A DNA stretch of 64,000 nucleotides. Origin: Ophelia neglecta (taxonomy: Eukaryota). The notes under the pieces are model-generated. The model was given only the letters and a program-made list of their open reading frames with translations. It searched no databases and was not told the DNA's origin. The stretch covers positions 71,486,001-71,550,000 of the forward strand of contig OZ260667.1 in assembly GCA_965285935.1 (NCBI GenBank), given 5' to 3'. Below are positions 1 to 46,600 of this stretch, piece after piece. The translations under genes and the position numbers were made by a program. Every line of letters begins with the position of its first letter. The stretch's first letter is position 1.

Positions 1-3000
1 GACCTCTTGGCCTTACAGGCGGCGCCCGGTAGGCTAACTCGGCTGGCGGCCTCTTTCCCCTCAACTTTCAATTGTCAAAACTGGGCCAAAAATCGCCGCA
101 TTTTGTAATTTTTTGGTCAGAAATTTGTTTCAGAGGTCAAGGAGAGTTGAATGGTGTCCTTAGATTTTGTGTGGATCGCGTAGTTTGGCCATTTCCTTAT
201 TCGAATTTGATTTTCAATGGGCGAAAATGAGACAAAAAACGCCGAATTTTGTAATTTTTCGGCTAGAAATTTGTTTTAGGGGTCATGGAGAGTTGAATGG
301 TTGCCTTAGATTTTGGGTGGATAGCGTAGTTTGGCCATTTCCTTATTCGATTTTGATTTTCAATGGGCAAAAACGGGCCAAAAATCGCCGAATTTTGTAA
401 TTTTTTGGTCAGAAATTCGTTTTGGAGGTCATTAAGAGTTGATTGGTGGCCTTATATTTTGGGTGGATTGCGTAGTTTGGCCATTTCCTTATTCGATTTT
501 GATTTTCAATGGGCAAAAACGGGCCAAAAATCGCCGAATTTTGTAATTTTTTGGTCAGAAATTCGTTTTGGAGGTCATGGAGAGTTGAATGGTGGCCTTA
601 GATTTTGGGTGGATAGCGTAGTTTGGCCATTTCCTTATTCGATTTTGATTTTCAATGGGCGAAAATAGGACAAAAAACGCCGAATTTTGTAATTTTTTGG
701 CCAGAAATTAGTTTTAGTGGCCATGGAGAGTTGAATGGTGGCCTTAAATTTCAGGTGGATTGCGTAGTTTGGCCATTTCCTTATTCGATTTTGATTTTCA
801 GTTGGCAAAAATATGCCAAAAATCGCCTAATTTTGTAATTTTTGGGTCAGAAATTTGTTTTAGGGGCCATGGAGAGTTGAATGGTGGCCTTAATTTTTGG
901 GTGGATTGCGTAGATTGGCCATTTCCTTATTCGATTTTGATTTTCAATGGGCGGAAATGGGCCAAAAATCGCCGAATTTCAAGTTTTTTGGGCCGGAAAT
1001 GTACTTTGGAGATAAAACATGGTTGATTTAGGTACTTTTAGAGTGATTTTTTAATCGTTTTTTGAATAAGGAACTAGGCTTTCGAACTAGGAACTGGCCA
1101 TTTCCTAGTTCCTAGTTCCTAGTTCCTAGTTCGACTTTGTGTTTTCAATGTGCAAATAATGGAGAAAAATCGCGTTGCCTTTGTGTCTAATGACCTGGTA
1201 GGTATACCAGGAAAGATAAGTCTTCATTAGAAGCCACTGGAAGTTGCCTGGAATTCTTAAAATGGATATTTACTTACTCTCGGCGATTAATGAATAGTGA
1301 ATCGGTTAAGTGCCATTTCCTAATTCATGGTGGGCCAGAAAATTTTGCCACGAGTACTTGTGTTTTATAGGCGTTTCACGCTCCCAGGATCATTTCTAGA
1401 TGGCCAATTTTGCATGTTTTTTCCCGCAAATTGTATACCCCCTCCGACCTCTTGGCCTTACCGGCGGCGCCCGGTAGGCTAACTCGGCTGGCGGCCTCTT
1501 TCCCCTCAACTTTCAATTGTCAAAACTGGGCCAAAAATCGCCGCATTTTGTAATTTTTTTGTCAGAAATTTGTTTCAGAGGTCAAGGAGAGTTGAATGGT
1601 GTCCTTAGATTTTGTGTGGATCGCGTAGTTTGGCCATTTCCTTATTCGAATTTGATTTTCAATGGGCGGAAATGGGCCAAAAATCGCCGAATTTCAAGTT
1701 TTTTGGGCCGGAAATGTACTTTGGAGATAAAACATGGTTGATTTAGGTACTTTTAGAGTGATTTTTTAATCGTTTTTTGAATAAGGAACTAGGCTTTCGA
1801 ACTAGGAACTGGCCATTTCCTAGTTCCTAGTTCCTAGTTCCTAGTTCGACTTTGTGTTTTCAATGTGCAAATAATGGAGAAAAATCGCGTTGCCTTTGTG
1901 TCTAATGACCTGGTAGGTATACCAGGAAAGATAAGTCTTCATTAGAAGCCACTGGAAGTTGCCTGGAATTCTTAAAATGGATATTTACTTACTCTCGGCG
2001 ATTAATGAATAGTGAATCGGTTAAGTGCCATTTCCTAATTCATGGTGGGCCAGAAAATTTTGCCACGAGTACTTGTGTTTTATAGGCGTTTCACGCTCCC
2101 AGGATCATTTCTAGATGGCCAATTTTGCATGTTTTTTCCCGCAAATTGTATACCCCCTCCGACCTCATGGCCTTACCGGCGGCGCCCGGTAGGCTAACTC
2201 GGCTGGCGGCCTCTTTCCCCTCAACTTTCAATTGTCAAAACTGGGCCAAAAATCGCCGCATTTTGTAATTTTTTTGTCAGAAATTTGTTTCAGAGGTCAA
2301 GGAGAGTTGAATGGTGTCCTTAGATTTTGTGTGGATCGCGTAGTTTGGCCATTTCCTTATTCGAATTTGATTTTCAATGGGCGAAAATGAGACAAAAAAC
2401 GCCGAATTTTGTAATTTTTCGGCTAGAAATTTATTTTAGGGGTCATGGAGAGTTGAATGGTTGCCTTAGATTTTGGGTGGATAGCGTAGTTTGGCCATTT
2501 CCTTATTCGATTTTGATTTTCAATGGGCAAAAACGGGCCAAAAATCGCCGAATTTTGTAATTTTTTGGTCAGAAATTCGTTTTGGAGGTCGTTAAGAGTT
2601 GAATGGTGGCCTTAAATTTTGGGTGGATTGCGTAGTTTGGCCATTTCCTTATTCGATTTTGATTTTCAATGGGCAAAAACGGGCCAAAAATCGCCGAATT
2701 TCGTAATTATTTGGTCAGAAATTCGTTTTGGAGGTCATTAAGAGTTGAATGGTGGCCTTATATTTTGGGTGGATTGCGTAGTTTGGCCATTTCCTTATTC
2801 GATTTTGATTTTCAATGGGCAAAAACGGGCCAAAAATCGCCGAATTTCGTAATTTTTTGGTCAGAAATTCGTTTTGGAGGTCATTAAGAGTTGAATGGTG
2901 GCCTTATATTTTGGGTGGATTGCGTAGTTTGGCCATTTCCTTATTCGATTTTGATTTTCAATGGGCAAAAACGGGCCAAAAATCGCCGAATTTCGTAATT

Positions 3001-4495
3001 TTTTGGTCAGAAATTCGTTTTGGAGGTCATTAAGAGTTGAATGGTGGCCTTATATTTTGGGTGGATTGCGTAGTTTGGCCATTTCCTTATTCGATTTTGA
3101 TTTTCAATGGGCAAAAACGGGCCAAAAATCGCCGAATTTTGTAATTTTTTGGTCAGAAATTCGTTTTGGAGGTCATGGAGAGTTGAATGGTGGCCTTAGA
3201 TTTTGGGTGGATTGCGTAGTTTGGCCATTTCCTTATTCGATTTTGATTTTCAATGGGCGAAAATAGGACAAAAAACGCCGAATTTTGTAAGTTTTTGGCC
3301 AGAAATTAGTTTAAGTGGCCATGGAGAGTTGAATGGTGGCCTTAAATTTCAGGTGGATTGCGTAGTTTGGCCATTTCCTTATTCGATTTTGATTTTCAAT
3401 GGGCAAAAATAGGCCAAAAATAGCCTAATTTTGTAATTTTTGGGTCAGAAATTTGTTTTAGGGGCCATGGAGAGTTGAATGGTGGCCTTAAATTTTGGGT
3501 GGATTGCGTAGTTTGGCTATTTCCTTATTCGATTTTGATTTTCCATGGGCAAAAATAGGCCAAAAATCGCCTAATTTTGTAATTTTTGGGTCAGAAATTT
3601 GTTTTAGGGGCCATGGAGAGTTGAATGGTGGCCTTAAATTTTGGGTGGATTGCGTAGATTGGCCATTTTCTTATTCGATTTTGATTTTCAATGGGCGGAA
3701 ATGGGCCAAAAATCGCCGAATTTCAAGTTTTTTGGGCCGGAAATGTACTTTGGAGATGAAACATGGTTGATTTAGGTACTTTTAGAGTGATTTTTTAATC
3801 GTTTTTTTGAATAAGGAACTAGGTTTTCGAACTAGGAACTGGCCATTTCCTAGTTCCTAGTTCCTAGTTCCTAGTTCGACTTTGTGTTTTCAATGTGTAA
3901 ATAATGGTGAAAAATCGCGTTGCCTTTGTGTCTAATGACCTGGTAGGTATACCAGGAAAGATAAGTCATCATTAGAAGCTACTGGAAGTTGCCTGGAATT
4001 CTTAAAATGGATATTTACTTACTCTCGGCGATTAATGAATAGTGAATCGGTTAAGTGCCATTTCCTAATTCATGGTGGGCCAGAAAATTTTGCCACGGGT
4101 ACTTGTGTTTTATAGGCGTTTCACGCTCCCAGGATCATTTCTAGATGGCCAATTTTGCATGTTTTTTCCCGCAAATTGTATACCCCCTCCGACCTCATGG
4201 CCTTACCGGCGGCGCCCGGTAGGCTAACTCGGCTGGCGGCCTCTTTCCCCTCAACTTTCAATGGGCGAAAAAGGGCCAAAAACCGCCGGATTTTGATTCT
4301 TTTTGGGCAGAAATGATCACTAGGGGTCATAAAGAGTGATATTGTGTGCTTAGATCTAGGTTAGTAGGTTTATTTCGAATAAGGAACTAGGAACTGGAAT
4401 TAGGAAATGGCTTGAGTTTCATTTCCTAATTCGAACTAGGAACTAGGAACTAGGAACTAGTAAATCACTTGAGTCTGCTTCATATAGACAGACTA
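1..4495. repeat. Complex tandem array (satellite) of 146-bp monomers in higher-order units; runs off the left edge of the window
   Basis: The anchor GACCTC(T/A)TGGCCTTAC recurs at 1, 1446, 2161 and 4191 (periods 1445, 715, 2030 = 715 + n x 146, +1 in the last). Monomer anchors (TTTCAAT-type) fall at 69, 215, 361, 507, 653, 799, 945; 1514, 1660; and 2229 to 3689 every 146 bp. Each unit ends in a ~201-bp (TTCCTAG)n-containing block plus a ~368-bp spacer. Confidence 0.97.
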
Positions 4496-4804: not shown

Positions 4805-5574
4805 GTGTTCGTGTCCCTACATACAAACGAAACCCACCTGAACAAAACTTCCAGGACCACGAGGGTGGGGATAAAATGATCTTACGAGCAACTAACCCTG
4901 TGTCTGCTGGCCTTAACTCGTAACGTTAGTAGTAATTGAGCCCCTCGACAAAATAATCTTTGAGGGAACATGGCATTCCACATAGTTGTTTAAGAAGTAA
5001 ATTGGCTTTTAAATAACTGCCACACTCATAATCAGCAGCGGCCTGATCTTCAAACCCGGTGTTTCTGTTTTGCCAGTAAGTCAAGTTCATCAAAGGCTTG
5101 AACTTTATCGTTCGAATAACAGCTCCTTGTGGAATACAAAGTTCAATTGGAGCCGTTGCAACCGGAGATAAGAAAAAGAAACATTTCGGAAGAAGTTTCA
5201 GGTATATAACGTGGTTTCAGGTATATAACGTTAACAAATTGATTATTTAATCTTGTTAACTTGTGTTAACTTAATAACGATGTGCATAGAGTGTAAATTC
5301 CATTCCAAACTTACATGTACGTTTACATTAAGCGTAATCATCCATATATTAACCTCTTAACTCTAAGCATCTTCTTAACCAATAAATGAAGCCAAAACTT
5401 AGTGTTGTCCCAGAAATTAGGCTTAAGCCGTCCAGAAAGGTGCATGCCCCCCGCTTCCTGGCTTCCGCCCCTCTAAATAGCCCACTCACATTGTTTGTCA
5501 CTATGGCTAATAAAATCTTGCCATCTAAGTCAACAATTCTTAGATAAGGTATGCACCCAGTCTTAATTAATCAA

Positions 5575-5794
5575 GGCCTGTTTTTGGAAGTGGTCTCAAG
5601 TCTCAATCCGGATTAAAAGCATGATTAAAATGCCTCATCGTTCTTAATTGCCTGAGCAGGGTTTCTGAAATCTAGATCTTAGACCGGGCCATTTTGGTCT
5701 TAAAATCAATCCTAGTCAATGGAAACTATTCTCAGCTAATCGGTAATAGGCTGATATATTCCCAATACTTAACAATGCTTCCGGAAGCCGGGCC
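5575..5794. mobile_element. PIF/Harbinger-like MITE, degenerate copy of the family at 36255-36491
   Basis: Colinear similarity to 36255-36491 (GGAAGTGGTCT, GGGTTTCTG, GCCATTTTGGTCTTAAA, TCAGCTAATCGGT). Ends are GGCCTGTTTTTGGAAG and CTTCCGGAAGCCGGGCC; flanks are CAA/CAG. Confidence 0.75.
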
Positions 5795-6618
5795 CAGACA
5801 CAAACAGCCACAGACCTAGCAGCCACAGACCCAACCCCCTAACAGGTAATAAGAAGTGGATTCTCAAGAGTAAACAATGTATTTAAATTGATATCAAACC
5901 CTGCCTACCTAAAACATGATTATATCTTGTGAGAGGGTATAAATTTGTTTTATTTTACTATTTTGTTGTCGACAAATGTGAAATGTTTTTACGTGGAATC
6001 TGGTTAATTATAAAGCAAAACGCGTGTGAAGGTACCGAGGTGTGACAGATTTCAAGCAAAATATTTATGTAATTCAGTTCGTAACATGATACAAAAACGA
6101 AGTATTTGCAATATTTGCATTCATTGGAAACAGAATATGTGTAAACAAGCAATCAATATTAATTCGGTCGTTGGGTGCCACATATTTCTCGACAATCTTC
6201 ATTGGAATGAGGTAAGTATTCTTATTACAATGACAATGATAGATGACGTGCTCTGTGGTGCTTTGCAGTCATGCTCTCATCAATCTTGTATTGGCAGGTT
6301 TATGCTACTGCAGCAGACACATGTCGAGTCTTTGACTCCGATAAGGACCAGTTTCTGTCGCCTATACGGCTAATTACTTCGGAAAATGCAAATCATCCTT
6401 TCACCCAATGTGGACGCTTAAAAAAGTGACTATAGTGGTGTGTTGAACATAGTGACTACATTTGTGGTGTTCATCTAAAGCAGATATGATTCCACTTCAA
6501 CCTTTCGTCGCACAAACTAGCACGACTACTAAATTGAATCAGTTCAAATAATACAGGCCCCGTCCTGAGGACTCGTCATTTAGAAATTTAATATATATAT
6601 CATACACACATTAAAGGA

Positions 6619-6832
6619 GAAATAAGATCAAAGTAGGTGTAAAAAAGGTATAATCTCCGAGCTTTCGACTGATACAGCCGTCATTAGGGTACACAAATTT
6701 CAAATGAGGATATACAAATATAAAAACTAGGAGATTATACCTTTTTATACCTTTTTTAGACCTACTTTGATCTTATTTCTCTTTTATTGTATTACTACAG
6801 AGGTGTGCACAGCGGATGCAACTTATATTTTG
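6619..6832. mobile_element. Penelope-like element (PLE) remnant: inverted pseudo-LTR arms with 13-bp TSD
   Basis: Direct repeat ACACATTAAAGGA at 6606-6618 and 6833-6845. Inverted arms at ~6617-6658 and 6730-6781 differ by one substitution and a 10-bp duplication. A hammerhead motif adjoins the left arm. Confidence 0.8.
6655..6690 (-). ncRNA. Minimal type I hammerhead ribozyme motif (G5A variant, probably inactive)
   Basis: The minus strand reads ACC-CTAATGA-C-GGCTG-TAT-CAGTC-GAAA-GCTC-GGAG. This is a CUGANGA core with G5>A, a 5-bp stem II, GAAA, a palindromic AGCT stem III and a UC cleavage site. Stem I is only ~2 bp. Confidence 0.7.
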
Positions 6833-7654
6833 ACACATTAAAGGATTTGCTCTAGATTTATAGACCAAATGACATTCTGACTATTCACGTAATAAGTTAC
6901 AACACGCACCATTAGATGTTTATTATTATTGTATTTCCGGCGGCAGGATTAATTTGTTTAGTTAGACGTTAAAAATCTGACAGGAAGGTGTACATTGCTT
7001 TAAAAATTCCTGTGGAAACAACGGTCGGTGGGGGGATGCTTGTAGCTGGCGGAAGGACATTGTCGGTTATCTGGAAGAGGTGTTAGCTCGGACTAATATG
7101 ACTATTAAAGCGTTTTCATTCATTATTATTTGAATTAAAAGTTAATTCACTGTTTGAATGCTGGATATTGATTATTTACATGTTGATTTGTAATTGAATA
7201 CTAGTGACTAAAGATTTAACTTTGTCTGTCGGGTGTCCACTCCCGGTTTTGCTGACTTTTCTTGCTAATTGAGGTTCCGGAAGCTAGATTTAGCCTTAAA
7301 TCTAGTAACTTCGGTCATAAGTGGACCTGATTACTTCAGGAACTGGGATTTAAGATACGCTTGAGGACCTGACCGTCCCCAGAGTTAATTCTTTTGAGAA
7401 ATTTGGTGAAAGCAGACGCATTGTCATCGACCCTACGATAATCCAATTTCCAAAAAGAAGGGTTTATTGATTGTCCAAAACCTGTTTGAAGTGAGATATT
7501 GCTGTTGGCGTTGACGGATACATCAACAATAAGCTGTCTTCAAAAGACCTTAAATAGATAAAATAGGCAAGCAATCACTTAAGCGGAAGTAATAGTACGT
7601 CACTGCCCTGTTTATAGCCGCCAGGCGTGTATGTGAAGACTTAGATTCCGCGGG

Positions 7655-7875
7655 CACAGTGACCACCCGAGGTAGGAATCTGTTTGTATAGAAGTCATGA
7701 TAATCCAGTTCTTGTAGAGATTAACCCGTATATTGCCATTATACCCCGATTGAGGTAGTGACCTACATGTATATTCGTCATGACAGCCCACTTGAGATAG
7801 AGATCTACTTGAATGGTGGTCTTGACAACTCGCTTGAAGAAGAGATCTACCTATATAGTTGTCATGGCAACCCAC
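7655..7875. repeat. Degenerate minisatellite, ~41-42-bp unit, ~5 copies
   Basis: GTCATG-like anchors at ~7695, 7736, 7778, 7819 and 7861, with recurring TAGAGATCTAC-like motifs. Confidence 0.7.
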
Positions 7876-10800
7876 AACGCCTTCATTGTATAATTGGAAT
7901 GATAATTATTAATCAGTTCATAATAAAGCTCGCGGTCAAGCGTTGTTTAATCTGAAAAATCATATTTAAGTGAATCGTGAAGCCGTACATTTGATTGATA
8001 TGAGACCATTATTAAAGTCTAGTATTGATAGGTATACACTATAAATTCACCTTACAAAGAAACAAATTAAAAACCAATGTAATTATTACTTTTAGGGAAC
8101 AATACATTTAACTTCAATGCTGTTGTCGGGGCTTGGGACGTCGGGGGTATATATCCATTCATGTTTTTTCCGACAATGGGAGAGCACATTAATTCATAAT
8201 ATCTCATAATATACATCTCATTCCCGTCAGTCGACGTCCTGAAACGAATGTGCCTACGTTAACATACTGAAAGAAGTTCCGACCAGCCAGCAAGGTAAAG
8301 CGACATAAATCATGTCCAACACGAAGAGAGGGCAAATGAAAGATCATAAGCGTCATTGACAGTGACACGGGAGAAACGTGTTTGAAGTGACTTAATGATA
8401 CCATTCAAATGGCCAAATTTGACTTTGTAGAAGGCTTCTACACAGTTTTTAAGTTGCCGTGTCGTTCTTTTACACATCCTGCCTGTGAAAATAGATTGAA
8501 AGAAATAATACCCAAACAAGCCTTGATCAATCCAGCTCATCAAAACATATTTGTGTTTGTGTTACCTTTCAACCAAAGGCATAAGCTGTAGTTGGTTTCC
8601 GCCGACGACAGTGATATGAATATTTAACTTGGAATTCAGTGGTACACACCGAAGGAAAATTGATATCAGCCACCCTAGTGTGAAAAATACGACTGAATGA
8701 AATGAGCAAAGTGTAAGAACAACACACACAATGCCGCAGAGACAGTGTATTGTTGGATGATGAATCAGATGATGAGTCGAGTTGCACTAACAAGGAGTAA
8801 GAAAACGTACAATACAATCTCATGATAAGTAAAATTTTAGCTGAGTGCCTTCATACAGTCTATCTAATAGATACACAAAACAAAGTGTATTGATACTTAA
8901 CGGGCATTAAACTGAAATCTAATTTTAAGATTTGAAAATTTCTATAACATGAATTAAGTAATCTGCATCAAGTGTAAACATGGTGGCATGTGGGGTGTAC
9001 GGTGAACGAGAAAAATACACTTTAAATAATAAAAATACATTAGTTTTGCCAGGTTTACCAGAAGAAATAACACACTGCATTCGAAGAGCTCCACACGTTA
9101 AAAACTGTCAAATTCTAAACGGCAATTTAATAAAACTGCTTGAATAGTCCCAAAAGTACAGTTTTCAGACGCACTGCAATACTTAGTGAGATTCAGAGTG
9201 CTAATACAGGGTGTGTCTTGTAAGAACAGTATAATCACGCTAATGAACCAATGGTGTTTCTGAATGATAATAACTTGTTAAGTAGTTTCTGCTTTGCTAG
9301 TTAGTTGAACATATTAATTTTCAACAAACAGCCAGCAGGGGGCACTGCATTTCTTAACTGAATTTGTTTTTATAACAGTTGGTATTAGAGATTGAAAAAT
9401 TAGCCTTATTGTTTTTCATAAGTTATTATTTAGCACAAGATCGTTCTAGGTGGGCCCTTGTTACACGGAGCAACCGGAAAGGCATACATCCGTAAAATTA
9501 CCATACACGCCCTATGTGTCAAATGATAAATATAATCTACGGCCGCAAGGAGTTCAAATGTAAGATGTGGATAATATTACAATTCGCCTTTTGACTTAGG
9601 ATAGTATGAATGGAAGCTTGTGATATCGACTCCACGATACCGACCCTGAAAACATACTTGCCACTCAACGGCCAGCAGGGAGTCAGTAAAATGAATGTGC
9701 GAGATTGAGAAAGAGCTCTTATGGGATTTCAATGCCACAAACAACGAGTTGATCGTATGATTCCGTCTATTTAATATAAAGATTATACTAAATTGTTTAA
9801 CCTGCTGACTTTAAGCAGACCTTAATCAGGTTCCTTTTATTTCAAGGAAGTTGAAAGCACATACGCAAAACCTCTTTCCTGCATGAAAACAAATGAAGCA
9901 CCCATTTGTATTTCAAAAACATGTAAATAGGTCTCCGAATCAACTTAATTTAATGGATTTTACTCGTCGCTTTTCGACCATCAACATACAGTGGTCTAGT
10001 ATGACCCTGACACTTTTTGTAATTCATGAGAAAGTGCAACATCAAACAAGAATGGAACCACTTTGGACAGACTAAGTATAGGTCCATTAACTATATTATT
10101 TATCACCACTTTCTGAGCTTGTGAAGGTCTTCTCCCTCTATTCTTACTGATATAGCAGGCCATTTTCCACTTAACACAGGCGCCTCCTTATTTAGAGGAC
10201 CCGTAAGTCACAGTTATGGTGCCATTTTATGTAATGTTATATTAGTGCCGTCTGGTTTCCTGCTTAGCTGTTCCAGGTTCAGATAATAGAATTGCTGGTA
10301 AAGCCTTCCATGAGACTCCACGTCCAGCAATAATAACCTCCTAGGTCAGGGTTGGCGGTTTGGCTTTGAAAACATTTTAGTAAAGGACGTTATTTCACTA
10401 TCGGAGATGTATTTCTACCACCCTCCCTCCCTTCCCCCGCCACACATTCTCACTCAGGTCAGTTGTTCTTTTTATGCATCGACTAATTGAGACAAAATGT
10501 AGCTAATTGTTACCTCTAGTGTATTAAATAAACAGAACATCTATCAGCCGAATGATGCCTATAGCTCATTTCTTTCTGAACTCTCAAGAAATTTGAAATG
10601 TTGATCCTCCTTATAAATCCTAGAAACATGTTAAAAAACATGTAACATATTTTCGGTTCTAGCCTAAAACATTTCCGTATTAGCTGACTTAATGAGAATC
10701 GTATTCCTGTGGAGTTAAAAAAGCCCAGCTGAACCTAGTGGCATGTATAAGGTTCCTCTCGGCAAACAGGGGGATGGATGTCCGTCACACTATTCAAAAC

Positions 10801-21430: not shown

Positions 21431-23474
21431 GAGGTGAAAATGTCGACCAAGTGGCGGGAATGGATGTGCAAACTCATTCCGTGCGAAGATAGCACGATTG
21501 ATATATGAACCAACTAATTCACTAGTCGCCTAAGGCCGGTACGCCAATGACGAGGGGTGTGACTCCCACAACCCGACTGTTGGTATTGATTGTCATGTAC
21601 GATCAGGAGTAGGCAGGTATGGAATGTAATGATGAAAAATAGCCAATCACACACAAGAAACGTTCCTAAAAATGCTGTAACCTAACCTGTCTCTCAGCGA
21701 CGATGCCATAATTAGGTTTCTAAATCTCAGATACCTTTCCACAACATACCGTGCCTGCTGAAGACAAAATATGTGGGTTCCAACAAAAGGACGAATATTG
21801 ATGGCAAACGAATTAGCAAGTAGCTTTATCTATTAGAAGACACTCATTGCCGACCTATAATATATATTGATATCACAGTTCGATTGAAAATCGTGAAAAG
21901 ATTTATTTAATACATGCTCAGATGGATTGTACAATATAAGTCAATGGAATAGGCATGTTGGACCATCCTGCTACTTGTGATCAAAGGGGGGTTGTTAGAT
22001 TTGTTTGGTGGCCAAAATCGTGACTCAGAGCAACTCGACCGCGGGAAAATGCATGGCATAATAAAAGGAATAAAGCATCTGGCAAGAGCACATATACAGG
22101 GCCAGAACACCCCAGTAGGCAGTTATTGCAAATGGGAGCATGAGTTATGTTACTTTAAGTAAACTGCATTCTGGCAAATTAGGCGAAATCAGGCGATTTT
22201 TTCTGATATGGAAGAATATTTGTATGGATATATAATACTTTTCTCTTGTCTGCATGAGGACGTGCTATTGCTTAAAAAACGTATTAAGCTTTAGCAAGTT
22301 GTAGATGAGCAGTCTCGTGTCTCGTATTGATGGCCCTGTCCTACATAAAACACTCACAAATGGTTGGGTCATTTTATGTTTAGCAATTAACTAAACACCA
22401 AACTTATTTCCTTGAAGCGATTATCGTTTTTGGCGCTGGCGCTGGTGATGACGGGATTATGGCAAAATAATGGATAAAAACTGATAATAAGCAATTGCTT
22501 CCTGTCAACCTTAAACTAGCTTTTGCCAGTGATAAAAACATAAGCCGATAATTGCCTTACCCCTAGCTGCTCAGCTGTGGTAATGAAATATTTAGCTATC
22601 CAAAGACCCAGCCAGTTCGTTCGGAAGGATAATCCCTACTTACTGCTAAAATCGAAATGTTTCTTAACGACCTAAGATAATGATTACAGTGTAACAGCAA
22701 CCAGCACAGGCCAAACTATCTTAGGAACTGCGTATTTCATTGATGGAACATGCCCCACACTCATCCAAAAATGCCACTTAACTTACTTTTGCTCTTACAA
22801 TATATTGTCACTCGTTGAATGAATGTTTATCTAATCAAACCACAAACTAAATAATCATTAATATTGCAAGGACACCTTTTGATATTCAGTTTTTCCGACC
22901 GTGGGTTCGGGGTTGGATTGGTTTATTCTCCGTTTGGCCAGCCATAGACAAGGCGCTGCTGATGATAACGGCTACATTTATCTTAAAGGAGCTCTTCTTG
23001 GATCGTTCAGTAATTTTAACCATTAATAAGAGAGACCTGTCCCGAATGGAAACTAACAACATATTTCGTTAACAAACAAAGGCTACCTGGGAAACAAAGA
23101 CCGGGTTTCTACTTCGAAATGCAACAGGGTCAATACTATGATACATATTGATGGACAGAGCGTACACATGGAGGGTAACTTATTGAAAGATAAGTCAAGG
23201 TTTGGGAAAGTCTCACTTCTTTTAAATAGTGCAATAGAATTTATATGCTTTTCTTTTACACTAATCGTTAGGAACACTAAACAAACATTAGTGCCTTGTT
23301 TTGACTTTGAACGTAATTGCGGTTGTTATGTATATGTTAATGCGCATGTCGAAGTAAGCAAGTCTGTGTTCTTGTATTTCTGCGTATCCAATTGGTCAAC
23401 ATCACTTCTAAAACTTGAAATATATTACTGGTAAATGAGTGTTATGTTTCTTAACTGTACAACTTTACATTACA

Positions 23475-26400
23475 AGAAGGCCTGCATTGCCAAACAATTA
23501 CGAAGTGGCATTGCAAAGACTGAGCAATGCAGAAAAAAGATTGTTCAGAAATCCAGAACTAAGTCAGGCATACCGAAATGTATTGCAAGGTTACCTAGAC
23601 AAGAGGTACATTCGACAGGTGGCGCCACAGGAACAGGAACCCAATGAACTTTGGTATCTGCCACATTTTCCTGTATTACGGCCTGACAAGAGTACGACCA
23701 AGGTGCGCATAGTATTCGATGCGGCCGCCAAATGTGATGGTATATCAGTCAATGATGTTGTCAATGAAGGACCGAAACTGCAGAATGATCTAGTAGCTGT
23801 TCTCCTACGATTCCGTCGAGAATCCATTGCTCTAACAAGCGACGTGGCTGAAATGTACCTACAAATACGTTTGAAATCCGAAGACCGGCCATTTCATAGA
23901 TTTTAATGGCGGGACTTAGATCAAAGTAAGCCACCAGATGTCCACGAATTTTCGAGAGTAGTATTCGGCATGGGTTCATCTCCGTTTATGGCACAATTCA
24001 TATCTCAGTTTCATGCCAGACAGCATCAGGCAGAATATCCACTAGCAGCAGAGACCGTCTTGCAGGGAACCTACATGGACGATAGCCTCGACTCTGTAGC
24101 TGATGAGGATACGGCTATTGAACTCTACAAGCAGTTATCAGGCTTGTGGGCATCCGCAGGTATGCATGCTCGGAAGTGGATATCAAATTCTCCGACGGTA
24201 CTACAGAACATTCCATCTGCAGATTGCATTAGTGCTGTAAATTTGGACAAAGATCCAGTGCCATGCATAAAACATTGGGTGTGCTTTGGATTCCAGAGAG
24301 CGACACATTCCATTTCTCTGTTAATCCCCCGGGCAGTGAACATGAAATTACAAAGCGAAGATCCATTGGGTTTCCTAGTCCCATTCACTGTCCAGGCAAG
24401 GATACTACTGCAGGATATGTGGGCTGCTGGTTTGGCCTGGGATGAAACTCCTGATGTAGAACTGGTGAAAAGAGCACAAAAATGGTTCTGCGAATTGGAG
24501 GACTTGGCACATATCACTATTCCTCGCTGTCTCAAAATCAGGAAAGAACTGGACAATGTAGCTCTCCATTTTTCGTAGATGCATCAGAGATGGCTTATGG
24601 AGGAGCTGCATATACCAGACACCAATATACGGATGGGACAGTCACTTGTAGGTTAGTCAGTGCAAAGTCACGTGTTGCACCTCTGAATGCCGTGAGCATA
24701 ACTAGACTTGAACTTATGGCAGCTATCGTAGGACTCAGAATGTTGGAACCTGTGGCAAAAGCTCTGAACATTTCGAAATCTGACTGTCAATTTTGGTCAG
24801 ATAGCATGGACGTCCTTTATTGGATCAGGGGAAACAGTCGCAAATTTAAGCCATTCGTAGCTAATCGTGTTGGTGACATTCAAGCTTCTACTGAACCCTC
24901 TCAGTGGAGGTACGTGCCGACAGATGAGAATCCGGCAGATATGCTTACTCGTGGACTCTCCGTATCTAGCCTTATAGACGAGGATAAATGGTGGAACGGT
25001 CCTAAATTTCTGCATTCAGATACTGCAGGCTGGCCAGAAACTCCTATATTGACCAAATCAAACCAGGACAAAGAACTCAGAAAACAGTACAGAGAGCTCG
25101 ATTGTACTGTAAGTACAGGAGCACCAGACAAAGATGTTGCTCTTGTAACATCTACAGAACCAGCCATGTGTGACAAACTAGACCCCTCACGTTTCTCTAA
25201 CTGGGTCAAATTGACCAGGTTGATGGCCAGAGTGATGAGATTTGTAGACAATTGTCGCTTGCCAGAGCCACTCCGTAGAACAGGGCCAATTCAGCCAGCA
25301 GAGCTTGCTGATTCTCAAAGACACTTCATCAAAATAGCTCAGCAAGAGCAATTTGGAGAAGACATTCGTAAATTGTGAGCCGGTCAGCAGTTACCCAGCA
25401 ACTCACAGCTCAGACCTCTGAAACCAATGTTGGATGAGGAGGGCATTCTACGATGTGATGGTCGATTGTGCTTCGCCGAATGCTTGTCGTGGGAAACAAG
25501 ATACCCAGTTATTTTGCCACGTCGACACCACGTCACCACATTGATCGTTAAGGAGGCACATGAACAGTGTCAGCATGGTGGGACAAATCAGGTGCTTTCA
25601 CACCTCTCCAGGTGCTTTTGGATTGTCTCTGCTAGAGAGGCAATAAGAGGATGGGAGAGAAAGTGTATGAGATGTAAGTTGAGGAAAGCATCTCCTGCCA
25701 GCCAAGTGATGGCACCACTTGAAGAACTTCGAACGCGTATGTCGCTTCGGGCATTCACTCAAACTGCAGTCGATTTCGCTGGTCCGTTTATTACAAGGCA
25801 ACGCAGAGGAAGAATCCGTGAAAAGAGATATTTATGTCTATTTACATGTTTGCAAACCAGAGCAGTTCATCTGGAACTAGCCTACCGCTTAGACACGGAT
25901 TCGTTTTTGAATTCCTTTTTCCGCATGGTTTCTCGTAGAGGCCTACCGAGGGACATGGTCTCGGATAATGGAACTAACTTCATAGGGGCGGACAGAGAGT
26001 TACGTGAACTTGTCGCTGCACTTGATCAAAATAAGATACAGGAATCAACAGCCAATCGCGGAGTGCAGTGGCATTTCAACCCCCCTGGAGCACCACACTT
26101 TAATGGTGCTCACGAAATAATGATGTAACAGATGAGGAACTGTTGACTGCCATTGTAGGTGCTGAAGGCTTAATCAATTCTCGGCCACTCACTTACCAAA
26201 GTGCGAACTGTGATGACTACGTACCATTGACGCCCAACCATTTCCTCCATGGGCAAATAGGAGAAGAATTTGCTCCCGAGTCAGTTGACAGCACTGATTT
26301 CAGTCCCCGGAAGCGATGGCGACGCATTCAGGAACTAACGCGACAATTTTGGAACAGATGGCTACGTGAATGGCTTCCTGGACTGAACACACGTAAAAAA

Positions 26401-26613
26401 TGGAGCCAAACGCGTGATGACATTCATGTAGGGGAAGTAGTACTAGTCCTTATGCCGGACACCCCTAGAGGCAAATGGCCCCTGGGTAGAGTAATCAAGA
26501 CTTTCCCAGGTCGTGACGGCCATGTCCGAACAGCTGATATCAAGGTTGGACAAACTATTCTTCGTCGTCCCATAGCAAAGCTATGCCCATTGGAACAAGG
26601 CCGCGATGAGTAA
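23475..26613 (+). pseudogene. pol: Disrupted BEL/Pao pol: reverse transcriptase, RNase H (Pao-type DAS motif), integrase, C-terminal DUF5641-like region
   Basis: Motifs: LPNNYEVALQRL, WYLPHFPV..KSTTKVRIVFDA, GPKLQNDL, DVAEMYLQI, YMDD (24072), DPLG, DASEMAYG, KSRVAP..RLEL, HHCC zinc finger, VDFAGP/SDNGTNF/HE, PLTPNHFL, WPLGRV. Lesions: stops at 23904 and 25376, frameshifts at ~24270 and ~24570, deletions at ~24359 and ~26122. Confidence 0.95.
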
Positions 26614-32490: not shown

Positions 32491-33110
32491 CGAGCCATAA
32501 GAATGGTCTTTGGGAAGTCCCGATCCGCGCCCTCCGCACCAATATTCTTAGAAAACAACATTCTAACTGTTGACTCTATATTTCAATATAAACTTCATAT
32601 ATTTATATTTAAATTCCTTAATGGGAAATTACCAAGAATTATCTCGATGTTACTACAATTTAACTTTCAAGTTCATGCATATCCCACTCGCCAATCATGT
32701 AATCTCCATCTACCAATTGTAAAGACTAATGTATTAAAGAATCACATTTTATATCAGAGTATTACGACATACAACAATGCCAGAAATTTCTTAGATTATA
32801 ACTGTTCTATTCATACGTTTAAAAAAATGGTAAAATCTTTTCTCTGTTTGTAAATCATTCTCGCTTGTATTGTACTACATAACTATGGTACTGATTTTTC
32901 CAATCCATCTGTGCCGTGTACAGCAATGCACCTATTTTGTAATTTTTCTTATATAGATCTGTTGCATACGTTTATGGCGCAGCAATAAAAATTTTAATAG
33001 TAGCAGAGGCCCATATAGGCTAAAGTTAGCCTCAGGAGCCAATTAGATTGTTTAAACACATTGTACACAATATCTCGATTAATAAAGAAAGATCAAATGT
33101 CAAAAAAAAA
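32491..33110 (+). mobile_element. 5'-truncated LINE 3' end (CR1/L2/Crack-group ORF2 C-terminus plus 3' UTR)
   Basis: RAIRMV..SAPIFLENNILTV..FIFK..HAYPTRQ..LHLP..YN..SIHTFKKMVKSFL matches the typical ORF2 terminus of this group. AATAAA at 33081 is followed by an A-rich repeat tail. Confidence 0.8.
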
Positions 33111-33354
33111 TGTCAAATAGAAAGTGGCAATAAAAATTAGGAATTAAACAGAAGACTACCATGTAAAAGGAAACCACCTCAGATTATTGTGCACTTGCTT
33201 TTAGTTAAATTTAGTTAACCCCTGTTGACAGAGATTCATTGTATAACTAAGACCTGACAACAGTACAGATTTATTGTGTACCAGGCTATGATGACAAGTA
33301 AATTTACTGTTAAATGTAAAAATCTGATTAAGTATCAAAACTAAACTTAAAATG

Positions 33355-33388
<34 letters not shown>

Positions 33389-46264: not shown

Positions 46265-46600
46265 TTGTTGTTGTTGTTGTTGTTTGGGGTTTTTACGTGG
46301 CTTTCAACACTAATCGGTCATATCGCCACAGAGCCTACTTGTGACAGTGGGCCCAATGCCCTCTTTATAGTGCTGCCTCACTTGACTACCTGCCGTAGAC
46401 ACCAGACAGGGAACCCCACCCAGTCACATTATGCTGACACCGGGTTGACCAGTCCTGATACTACCCCTGAAATACCGGGCGCCTGGCAGGGGAGCTATCA
46501 GTACCTATTTTTACGTTTTGGGTTTGCGCGATCGAGGTTCGAACCCCAATCTCCCACTTGCGAGGCGGACGCCCTAACCACTCGGCCACGCTTTGGTCTA
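46265..46600 (-). mobile_element. Full-length tRNA-derived SINE (V-domain-like core, (CAA)n tail) with 10-bp TSD
   Basis: Minus strand: A box TGGCCGAGTGG, B box GGTTCGAACC, core GGACTGGTCAACCCGGTGTCAGCATAATGTGACTGGGTGG, tail TGTTGAAAGCCACGTAAAAACCCCAAA(CAA)n. TSD AAATGGATAT at 46255-46264 and 46601-46610. Confidence 0.92.

Follow-up and report, generated by a model that had tools for sequence, protein, structure and literature searches.

The stretch of DNA analysed here (64,000 nucleotides, hereafter the window) carries a 214-nt insert that consists of two head-to-head 3'-end pieces of a hammerhead-bearing repeat family, likely a Penelope-like retroelement (PLE). One of the two arms starts at the first base past the predicted self-cleavage site of the hammerhead in the other; on balance, the joint between them was probably formed by the pairing of two reverse transcripts of an uncut RNA and not at a ribozyme-cut end.

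The accessible parts of PMC4209133, PMC8557442 and PMC11167929 treat the cutting by PLE hammerheads in vivo as an open question or report no sign of it, and a search of the literature outside subscription papers found no report of genomic breakpoints at the cut of a PLE hammerhead. Genomes alone could settle the matter if 5' ends were seen to accumulate at the cut. If the boundary of the arm did record cleavage, it would be genomic evidence that a Penelope minimal hammerhead cleaves in an animal germ line. The locus illustrates how single cases can mislead on ribozyme cleavage.

Structure of the insert

Signed positions are counted from the predicted cut, the base that follows it on the minus strand (window position 6658) being +1; in this numbering, C17 is 6659, C3 is 6687 (-29) and 6730 is -72. 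The coordinates of the features are given in Table 1.

Table 1. Features of the insert, its flanks and its hammerhead motif, in window coordinates.
Feature	Position	Strand	Remarks
Left 13-bp target duplication copy	6606..6618	+	part of it found in the insert-less allele
Right 13-bp target duplication copy	6833..6845	+	
Arm A	6619..6730	-	-72..+40 of the family, counted from the predicted cut; 3' end without tail
Arm B	6730..6832	+	family sequence +1..+93, without ribozyme; 10-nt duplication (6735-6754) and a single substitution, both private
Tail	6780..6832	+	about 43-53 nt, on arm B only, bounded by the family's two preferred 3' ends
Joint	6723..6730	+	3' end of arm A antisense strand; 6/8 complementary to -7..+1 of an uncut antisense strand
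Minimal type I hammerhead	6648..6694	-	stem I (2 bp + 4-nt bulge + 5 bp), core 6687-6681, extra base 6680
Hammerhead, remainder	stem II 6679-6667; palindromic AGCU 6663-6660; C17 6659	-	GAAA between stem II and the palindrome
Predicted self-cleavage site	between 6659 and 6658	-	by hammerhead numbering
Upstream segment predicted to pair with ribozyme core	6703..6730	-	-72..-45 with -27..+1; 23 pairs, 5 of them G-U
Initiator-like hexamer	6702..6707 (-49..-44)	-	6 of 7 listed 5' ends at 6700-6707; putative RNA start

The direct repeats around the insert, noted in the first-pass annotation, are exact, and no second copy of the insert was found inside the 64-kb window. Arms A and B are joined 5' to 5' and are identical at 39 of the 40 common positions, the 10-nt duplication in arm B excepted. 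The start of arm B at the first base after the predicted cut, likewise noted in the first pass, stands with an ambiguity of 1 nt (+1 or +2); base 6730 is common to both arms. The joint can be fixed at 6730, with one shared base, because the family contigs continue past 6730 and diverge there from the window. The sequence 6660-6730 is genuine upstream sequence of the family, and contigs diverge right after it (5, 6 and 3 contigs in the runs X1-X3, agreement 0.95-0.96). The possibility that 6703-6729 represents a decayed ribozyme of arm B was ruled out, since in contigs it is ordinary upstream family sequence.

Both arms carry a minority base at +6, where about 70% of the family depth has another base; this fits a single source. 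The last 11 bases of the left duplication could pair at 10 positions (one G-U) with the element RNA at +41..+51, and an equally good pairing at this register is found for 309 of 127460 window 11-mers (0.24%; 3.3% over 31 registers). The tail-less end appears to have been primed by pairing between target and RNA. A search for a stem-loop in the tail region found no notable fold (z +1.1 and +2.0).

The hammerhead motif

The predicted cut is placed at 6659/6658 because C17 falls at 6659. The minus-strand minimal hammerhead proposed in the first pass is indeed present and, at the family level, has the CUGANGA, GAAA and UH elements of the core; the window copy deviates by G5A (core CUAAUGA), which that annotation had missed. 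The intact core, CUGAUGA, which the annotation expected to be conserved in other copies, is seen in the contigs of all three runs: position 5 is G in 29-30 contigs of X1, 25 of X2 and 22 of X3 (depth 4474 of 4496 in X1). G5A is a change private to the window copy and is probably inactivating. Stem II comprises 5 bp, and the extra base 9/10.1, the pair G10.1-C11.1 and the palindromic 15.2-16.2 are all present, as compared with the list in the accessible part of PMC4209133.

The thermodynamic predictions are mixed. The hammerhead-constrained fold has an energy of -5.7 kcal/mol versus -9.1 for the unconstrained one, that is, 3.4 kcal/mol above the minimum; the palindrome helix did not appear in the cofolding of two hammerhead copies, and the predicted probability of stem II is 0.06 with the upstream segment and 0.9 after its removal. 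A descriptor built from the motif, and therefore partly circular, matched once in the window and three times in 100 second-order Markov copies of the window. The Rfam hammerhead models gave no match at E<=10 in 5500-8000 and none at the gathering score over the window.

One contig of X2 holds a family copy with a 35-nt deletion (6662-6698) that removes the ribozyme core and has a 3-nt microhomology. Among 16 analogous metagenome loci that were folded, with mixed results, four (L063, L033, L047 and L064) have bases upstream of the core for which pairing with the beginning of the core itself is predicted; judging from these models, such pairing may be a common masking feature or a matter of chance.

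The repeat family in the sample

The family was followed in contigs from three runs (X1-X3) of one sample carrying the locus, aligned twice; alignments of contigs favour old, diverged copies and have low sensitivity for a pile-up of 5' ends. The insert is a repeat, because its depth is far above that of the flanks: in X1, the summed contig depth is about 1,600-4,200 in most insert bins versus 15-40 in most flank bins. The size of the family is roughly of the order of a hundred copies, depth not being a copy number.

Among the rows listed, copies of the family exit at 6833 in 11, 9 and 12 contigs, with unrelated continuations, and also at 6612/6789 in 5+2, 4+1 and 3+2 contigs (X1-X3). In all three runs, the family favours two 3' ends, with about 43-53 nt between them, while its 5' ends vary; its sequence extends upstream of -72, and the sequence past +93 differs between contigs (agreement 0.47-0.51). 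Searches of the metagenome contigs for the family-like pattern gave 0 matches, and an exact 26-nt stretch of the family was found in neither the viral nor the prokaryote collections (0 in each).

An insert-less allele is represented by one contig in each of the three runs, which skips 6574-6839, has 45 other letters and lies at half the depth of the flanks; it shows a single 13-bp repeat only in part, the 45 intervening letters being outside the listing. The pieces listed include no contig across the junctions of the filled allele. The insertion is recent enough to sit on one allele only in the sample. Outside the insert, in the flanks within 6300-7200, the alleles differ by about 7-8% (13/188 and 15/186 letters plus gaps), so the animal is very polymorphic.

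Relationship to Penelope-like elements

The identification as a PLE, proposed in the first pass, is supported by anatomy, and rests on it because no ORF is linked: a minimal hammerhead, head-to-head arms, a tail on one arm, a target duplication and an empty allele. Of the features by which EN+ PLEs are recognised, a hammerhead in the pLTR, an inverted 5'-truncated head-to-head copy, two preferred 3' ends and a duplicated AT-rich target are seen here. No RT or GIY-YIG sequence was found in the window, where the best match to a PLE-like protein has E 0.19.

Comparisons with published systems refer to the accessible parts of the sources. Head-to-head arms with a tail on one of them and a target duplication correspond to the described layout of EN+ PLEs (PMC3846280, PMC8557442). 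The elements Pen2a, Pen2 and Pen3a of Adineta vaga (PMC3846280; overview in PMC8557442) share with the insert the head-to-head arms, the tail on one arm, the target duplication, the empty allele and the variable 5' truncation. The optional tail of Adineta vaga PLEs is 30-40 bp, slightly shorter than the tail of about 43-53 nt found here, and their target duplications are 8-10 bp in contrast to 13 bp; unlike them, the insert has no ORF between the arms, and the arms share one exact base at the joint (PMC3846280). Poseidon of Anolis (PAc, PMC11167929) likewise has two preferred 3' ends bounding a tail, an AT-rich target and a hammerhead in the pLTR; in that element, the tail is the stretch between two RT start sites, and the protein nicks and extends both target strands. 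The ORF of PAc starts at stem II, whereas the corresponding frame of the insert stops, by inspection, after 19 codons, and PAc priming is described as non-homologous, whereas the tail-less end of the insert pairs with the target at 10 of 11 positions (PMC11167929).

The minimal hammerheads of metazoan PLEs (PMC4209133) resemble the motif in the core, the 9/10.1 extra base, G10.1-C11.1, the palindromic stem III and the short interrupted stem I; the insert differs from those described in the accessible part of that source in the 5-bp stem II, G5A and an upstream segment predicted to sequester the core.

A looser hammerhead pattern was found at at least 119 metagenome loci, 85 of which belong to two analogous families (57 and 28 loci; L025 and L019). 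These families share the hammerhead layout, a fixed 3' end near +47/+49 and graded 5' ends, and in L025 the arms are also head-to-head, with a single tail and a duplication of 13 bp; they differ from the insert in sequence, with no similarity beyond one 21-nt match at chance level. Longer copies run, in L019, into a decayed ORF with motifs that we take, on inspection, to be RT- and GIY-YIG-like, and Pfam searches found no domain in any of four L019 fragments. By analogy with these families, fixed 3' ends combined with variable 5' ends fit the truncated ends of an ordinary PLE. In another metagenome contig (L021, 3-3034, minus strand), a hammerhead of the same type immediately precedes a 538-aa frame, behind which lies an RT-like frame with a sub-threshold match to RVT_1; to judge from its sequence, this is a two-ORF Penelope-like element.

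The first-pass annotation also suggested an undescribed non-autonomous PLE or retrozyme-like family. The non-LTR retrozymes of animals (bioRxiv 10.64898/2026.07.22.740005) are alike in being non-coding, in having a type I hammerhead and in their proposed PLE origin, but the accessible part of that work defines them by tandem units, each with a hammerhead, and no head-to-tail tandem units with a hammerhead occur at the locus. The absence of RT and GIY-YIG sequence from the window and the long inverted repeat would suit a retrozyme or a MITE-like element. The layout of a MITE or DNA transposon is not found, however: about 43-53 nt of tail extend beyond the inverted repeat on one side, the 5' ends vary and the contigs differ after +93. 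It is therefore very improbable that the family is such an element rather than the truncated end of a PLE, which its end pattern fits.

The joint between the arms

The seven bases before 6730 agree at five positions with the seven bases before the cut, which had been overlooked in the first pass; because of this agreement, the boundary of the arm lies on an imperfect microhomology. With arm B at +1, the end of arm A at -72 has 6/8 anchored pairs to the bases at and before the cut, and none of the other ends among the 93 tested reaches 5/8; of 14 registers, this end pairs best at +1. Some 6/8 register exists for 32 of the 93 ends, and 38 of 9672 pairs of end and register are as good as -72 with +1.

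The same bases form the foot (-72/+1) of a hairpin predicted for the sense RNA. The duplex between the upstream segment and the core has a predicted energy of -12.3 kcal/mol, which is reached by 0.9% of 3000 shuffles and by 5.1% of 921 U-matched window 28-mers; the total energy of the hairpin region is ordinary (z -0.67). At the DNA level, a snap-back is absent from the fold of cDNA A, the extended DNA duplex is unstable and the 6/8 pairing is weak.

These observations bear on three explanations of the joint. The first-pass annotation read it as a fossil record of in vivo self-cleavage, but it is explained equally well by uncut copies annealing at the 6/8 microhomology: given complementarity around the ribozyme, a joint can come to lie at the cut even when the RNA is uncut. 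On the cleavage reading, the template of arm B would be the 3' fragment left by the hammerhead; RT would have run off its cut 5' end at +1, and the product would have been joined to cDNA A through one shared base. An arm at +1 or +2 occupies about 2 of 110 possible positions, the hammerhead core of the family is intact and, provided that a joint requires one paired base, -72 belongs to a fairly small set of possible partner ends. Against this, the partner end at the single best position for pairing upstream of the cut is left unexplained; under cleavage, the -72 match is a coincidence, because the cDNA of a cut RNA would lack the bases before the cut. In addition, the case was chosen after the fact, and arm A itself derives from uncut RNA. 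Taken with the 5' ends described below, this makes the origin of arm B from a cut RNA rather unlikely, though well worth considering.

Random truncation followed by end-joining with one shared base, with both the cut-site match and the 6/8 pairing coincidental, appears less probable still. About 3-4% of two-armed inserts would be expected to have an arm at +1/+2 (about 110 positions), 32/93 ends offer some 6/8 register and the case was drawn from very many windows; random joining nevertheless requires two coincidences. Annealing of uncut copies also needs luck to land on the cut, and the single joint cannot decide, being about equally likely under the annealing and cleavage models because 38/9672 pairs are equally good.

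5' ends and fold-backs of the family

The first-pass annotation proposed to test for a pile-up of 5' truncations at the cut; the sample contigs gave none among the rows listed, which weighs against cleavage. The 5'-end set comprised 77 contigs, 18 of them only partly aligned, with 6 of 21 rows of loose ends and 8 of 83 pieces listed; records 1, 3 and 4 were not counted as 5' ends, one overrunning the stretch and two stopping at contig ends. The seven solo 5' ends among the rows listed lie at -26, -42 (two), -45, -47, -48 and -49, so that none is at the cut and all seven are upstream of it; for two of the seven, only 34 further letters are present, and these possibly represent divergence instead of flank. 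No loose end falls at the cut among the rows listed (18 of 151 and 6 of 21, three of the latter from single contigs), rows down to single contigs being already included. Neither is there a fall in summed depth where the cut is passed in the upstream direction (2851 at 6656-6659, 3592 at 6660-6663).

The solo 5' ends at -42..-49 suggest that many copies are complete copies of short uncut RNAs starting in the pLTR. The hexamer at this place is presumably related to the initiator consensus, and a palindrome farther upstream in the loose-end consensus is one that we take to be CRE-like. Solo copies that start at an initiator-like motif upstream of the uncut ribozyme offer a lead. For the Anolis element, the accessible part of PMC11167929 reports that hammerhead mutants inserted normally in vitro and that no RNA-seq reads ended at the cut.

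Two further fold-backs of the family were recognised. That of X2 has arms at about -32 and -7 (three-contig loose-end consensus, the far part from one contig); its template was uncut, because 6-7 bases upstream of the cut are retained. That of X3, from one contig, has arms at +3 and at or before +13; an arm at +3 fits a cut RNA, and the fold-back fits either model. Opposite-strand joints 6621-6778, 6621-6792 and 6646-6752 were left out, being switches between similar arms or variants. All three known fold-backs of the family have one arm within -7..+3, which speaks against random joining and is a weak hint of a barrier there.

In the analogous families, 92 loci were screened, and none of five adjacent inverted partners starts at +1, a further point against cleavage; they start at about -75, -50 or beyond, -31, -67 and +36. 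In this count, the ribozyme of one arm was intact by selection, and inverted repeats are lost from assemblies of short reads; locus L006, whose partner lies 1.3 kb away and does not start at the cut either, was omitted.

Proposed course of the insertion

Under the preferred reading, the annealing of two reverse transcripts of uncut RNA, an RT/GIY-YIG protein would nick the two target strands 13 nt apart at an AT-rich site. The bottom strand would prime at the outer start site (+93, the end of the tail). The top strand would use the inner one (+41..+51), aided by the 10/11 pairing with the RNA. The two cDNAs would meet where -72..-45 complements the ribozyme core, and RT could stall near +1, at the foot of the RNA hairpin (-72/+1). 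Then either cDNA A would fold back or its 3' end would pair at 6/8 positions with -7..+1 of cDNA B, and a resolution favouring the strand of arm A would leave the start of arm B exactly at +1. In a variant, a snap-back of cDNA A on itself would also account for the common base at +6. After the insertion, the copy would have gained G5A, one substitution and a slippage duplication.

A more speculative and rather doubtful combination is that some insertions of the family, arm B included, were copied from ribozyme-cut RNA, and that the upstream segment masking the core works as a switch that would be off in read-through RNA and on when the RNA starts at the initiator-like motif.

Other features of the window

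The window looks like repeat-rich animal DNA, with a BEL/Pao remnant, a satellite and a tRNA-like repeat. Arrays of a 146-bp satellite occupy 1-4355 and are broken three times by a unit of roughly 500 nt holding a 7-nt tandem repeat, possibly a mobile element carrying satellite; an inverted copy of the 7-nt array is located at 4428-4465. The decayed pol of a BEL/Pao LTR retrotransposon (Peptidase_A17, integrase and DUF5641, with stops and frameshifts) lies at 23439-26613. A frame of 120 aa at 32491-33386, without a Pfam match and with a 30-nt poly(A) 500 nt downstream, presumably resembles the end of a LINE ORF. The tRNA-like sequence at 46525-46591 on the minus strand, slightly over the Rfam gathering score, is possibly a SINE head.
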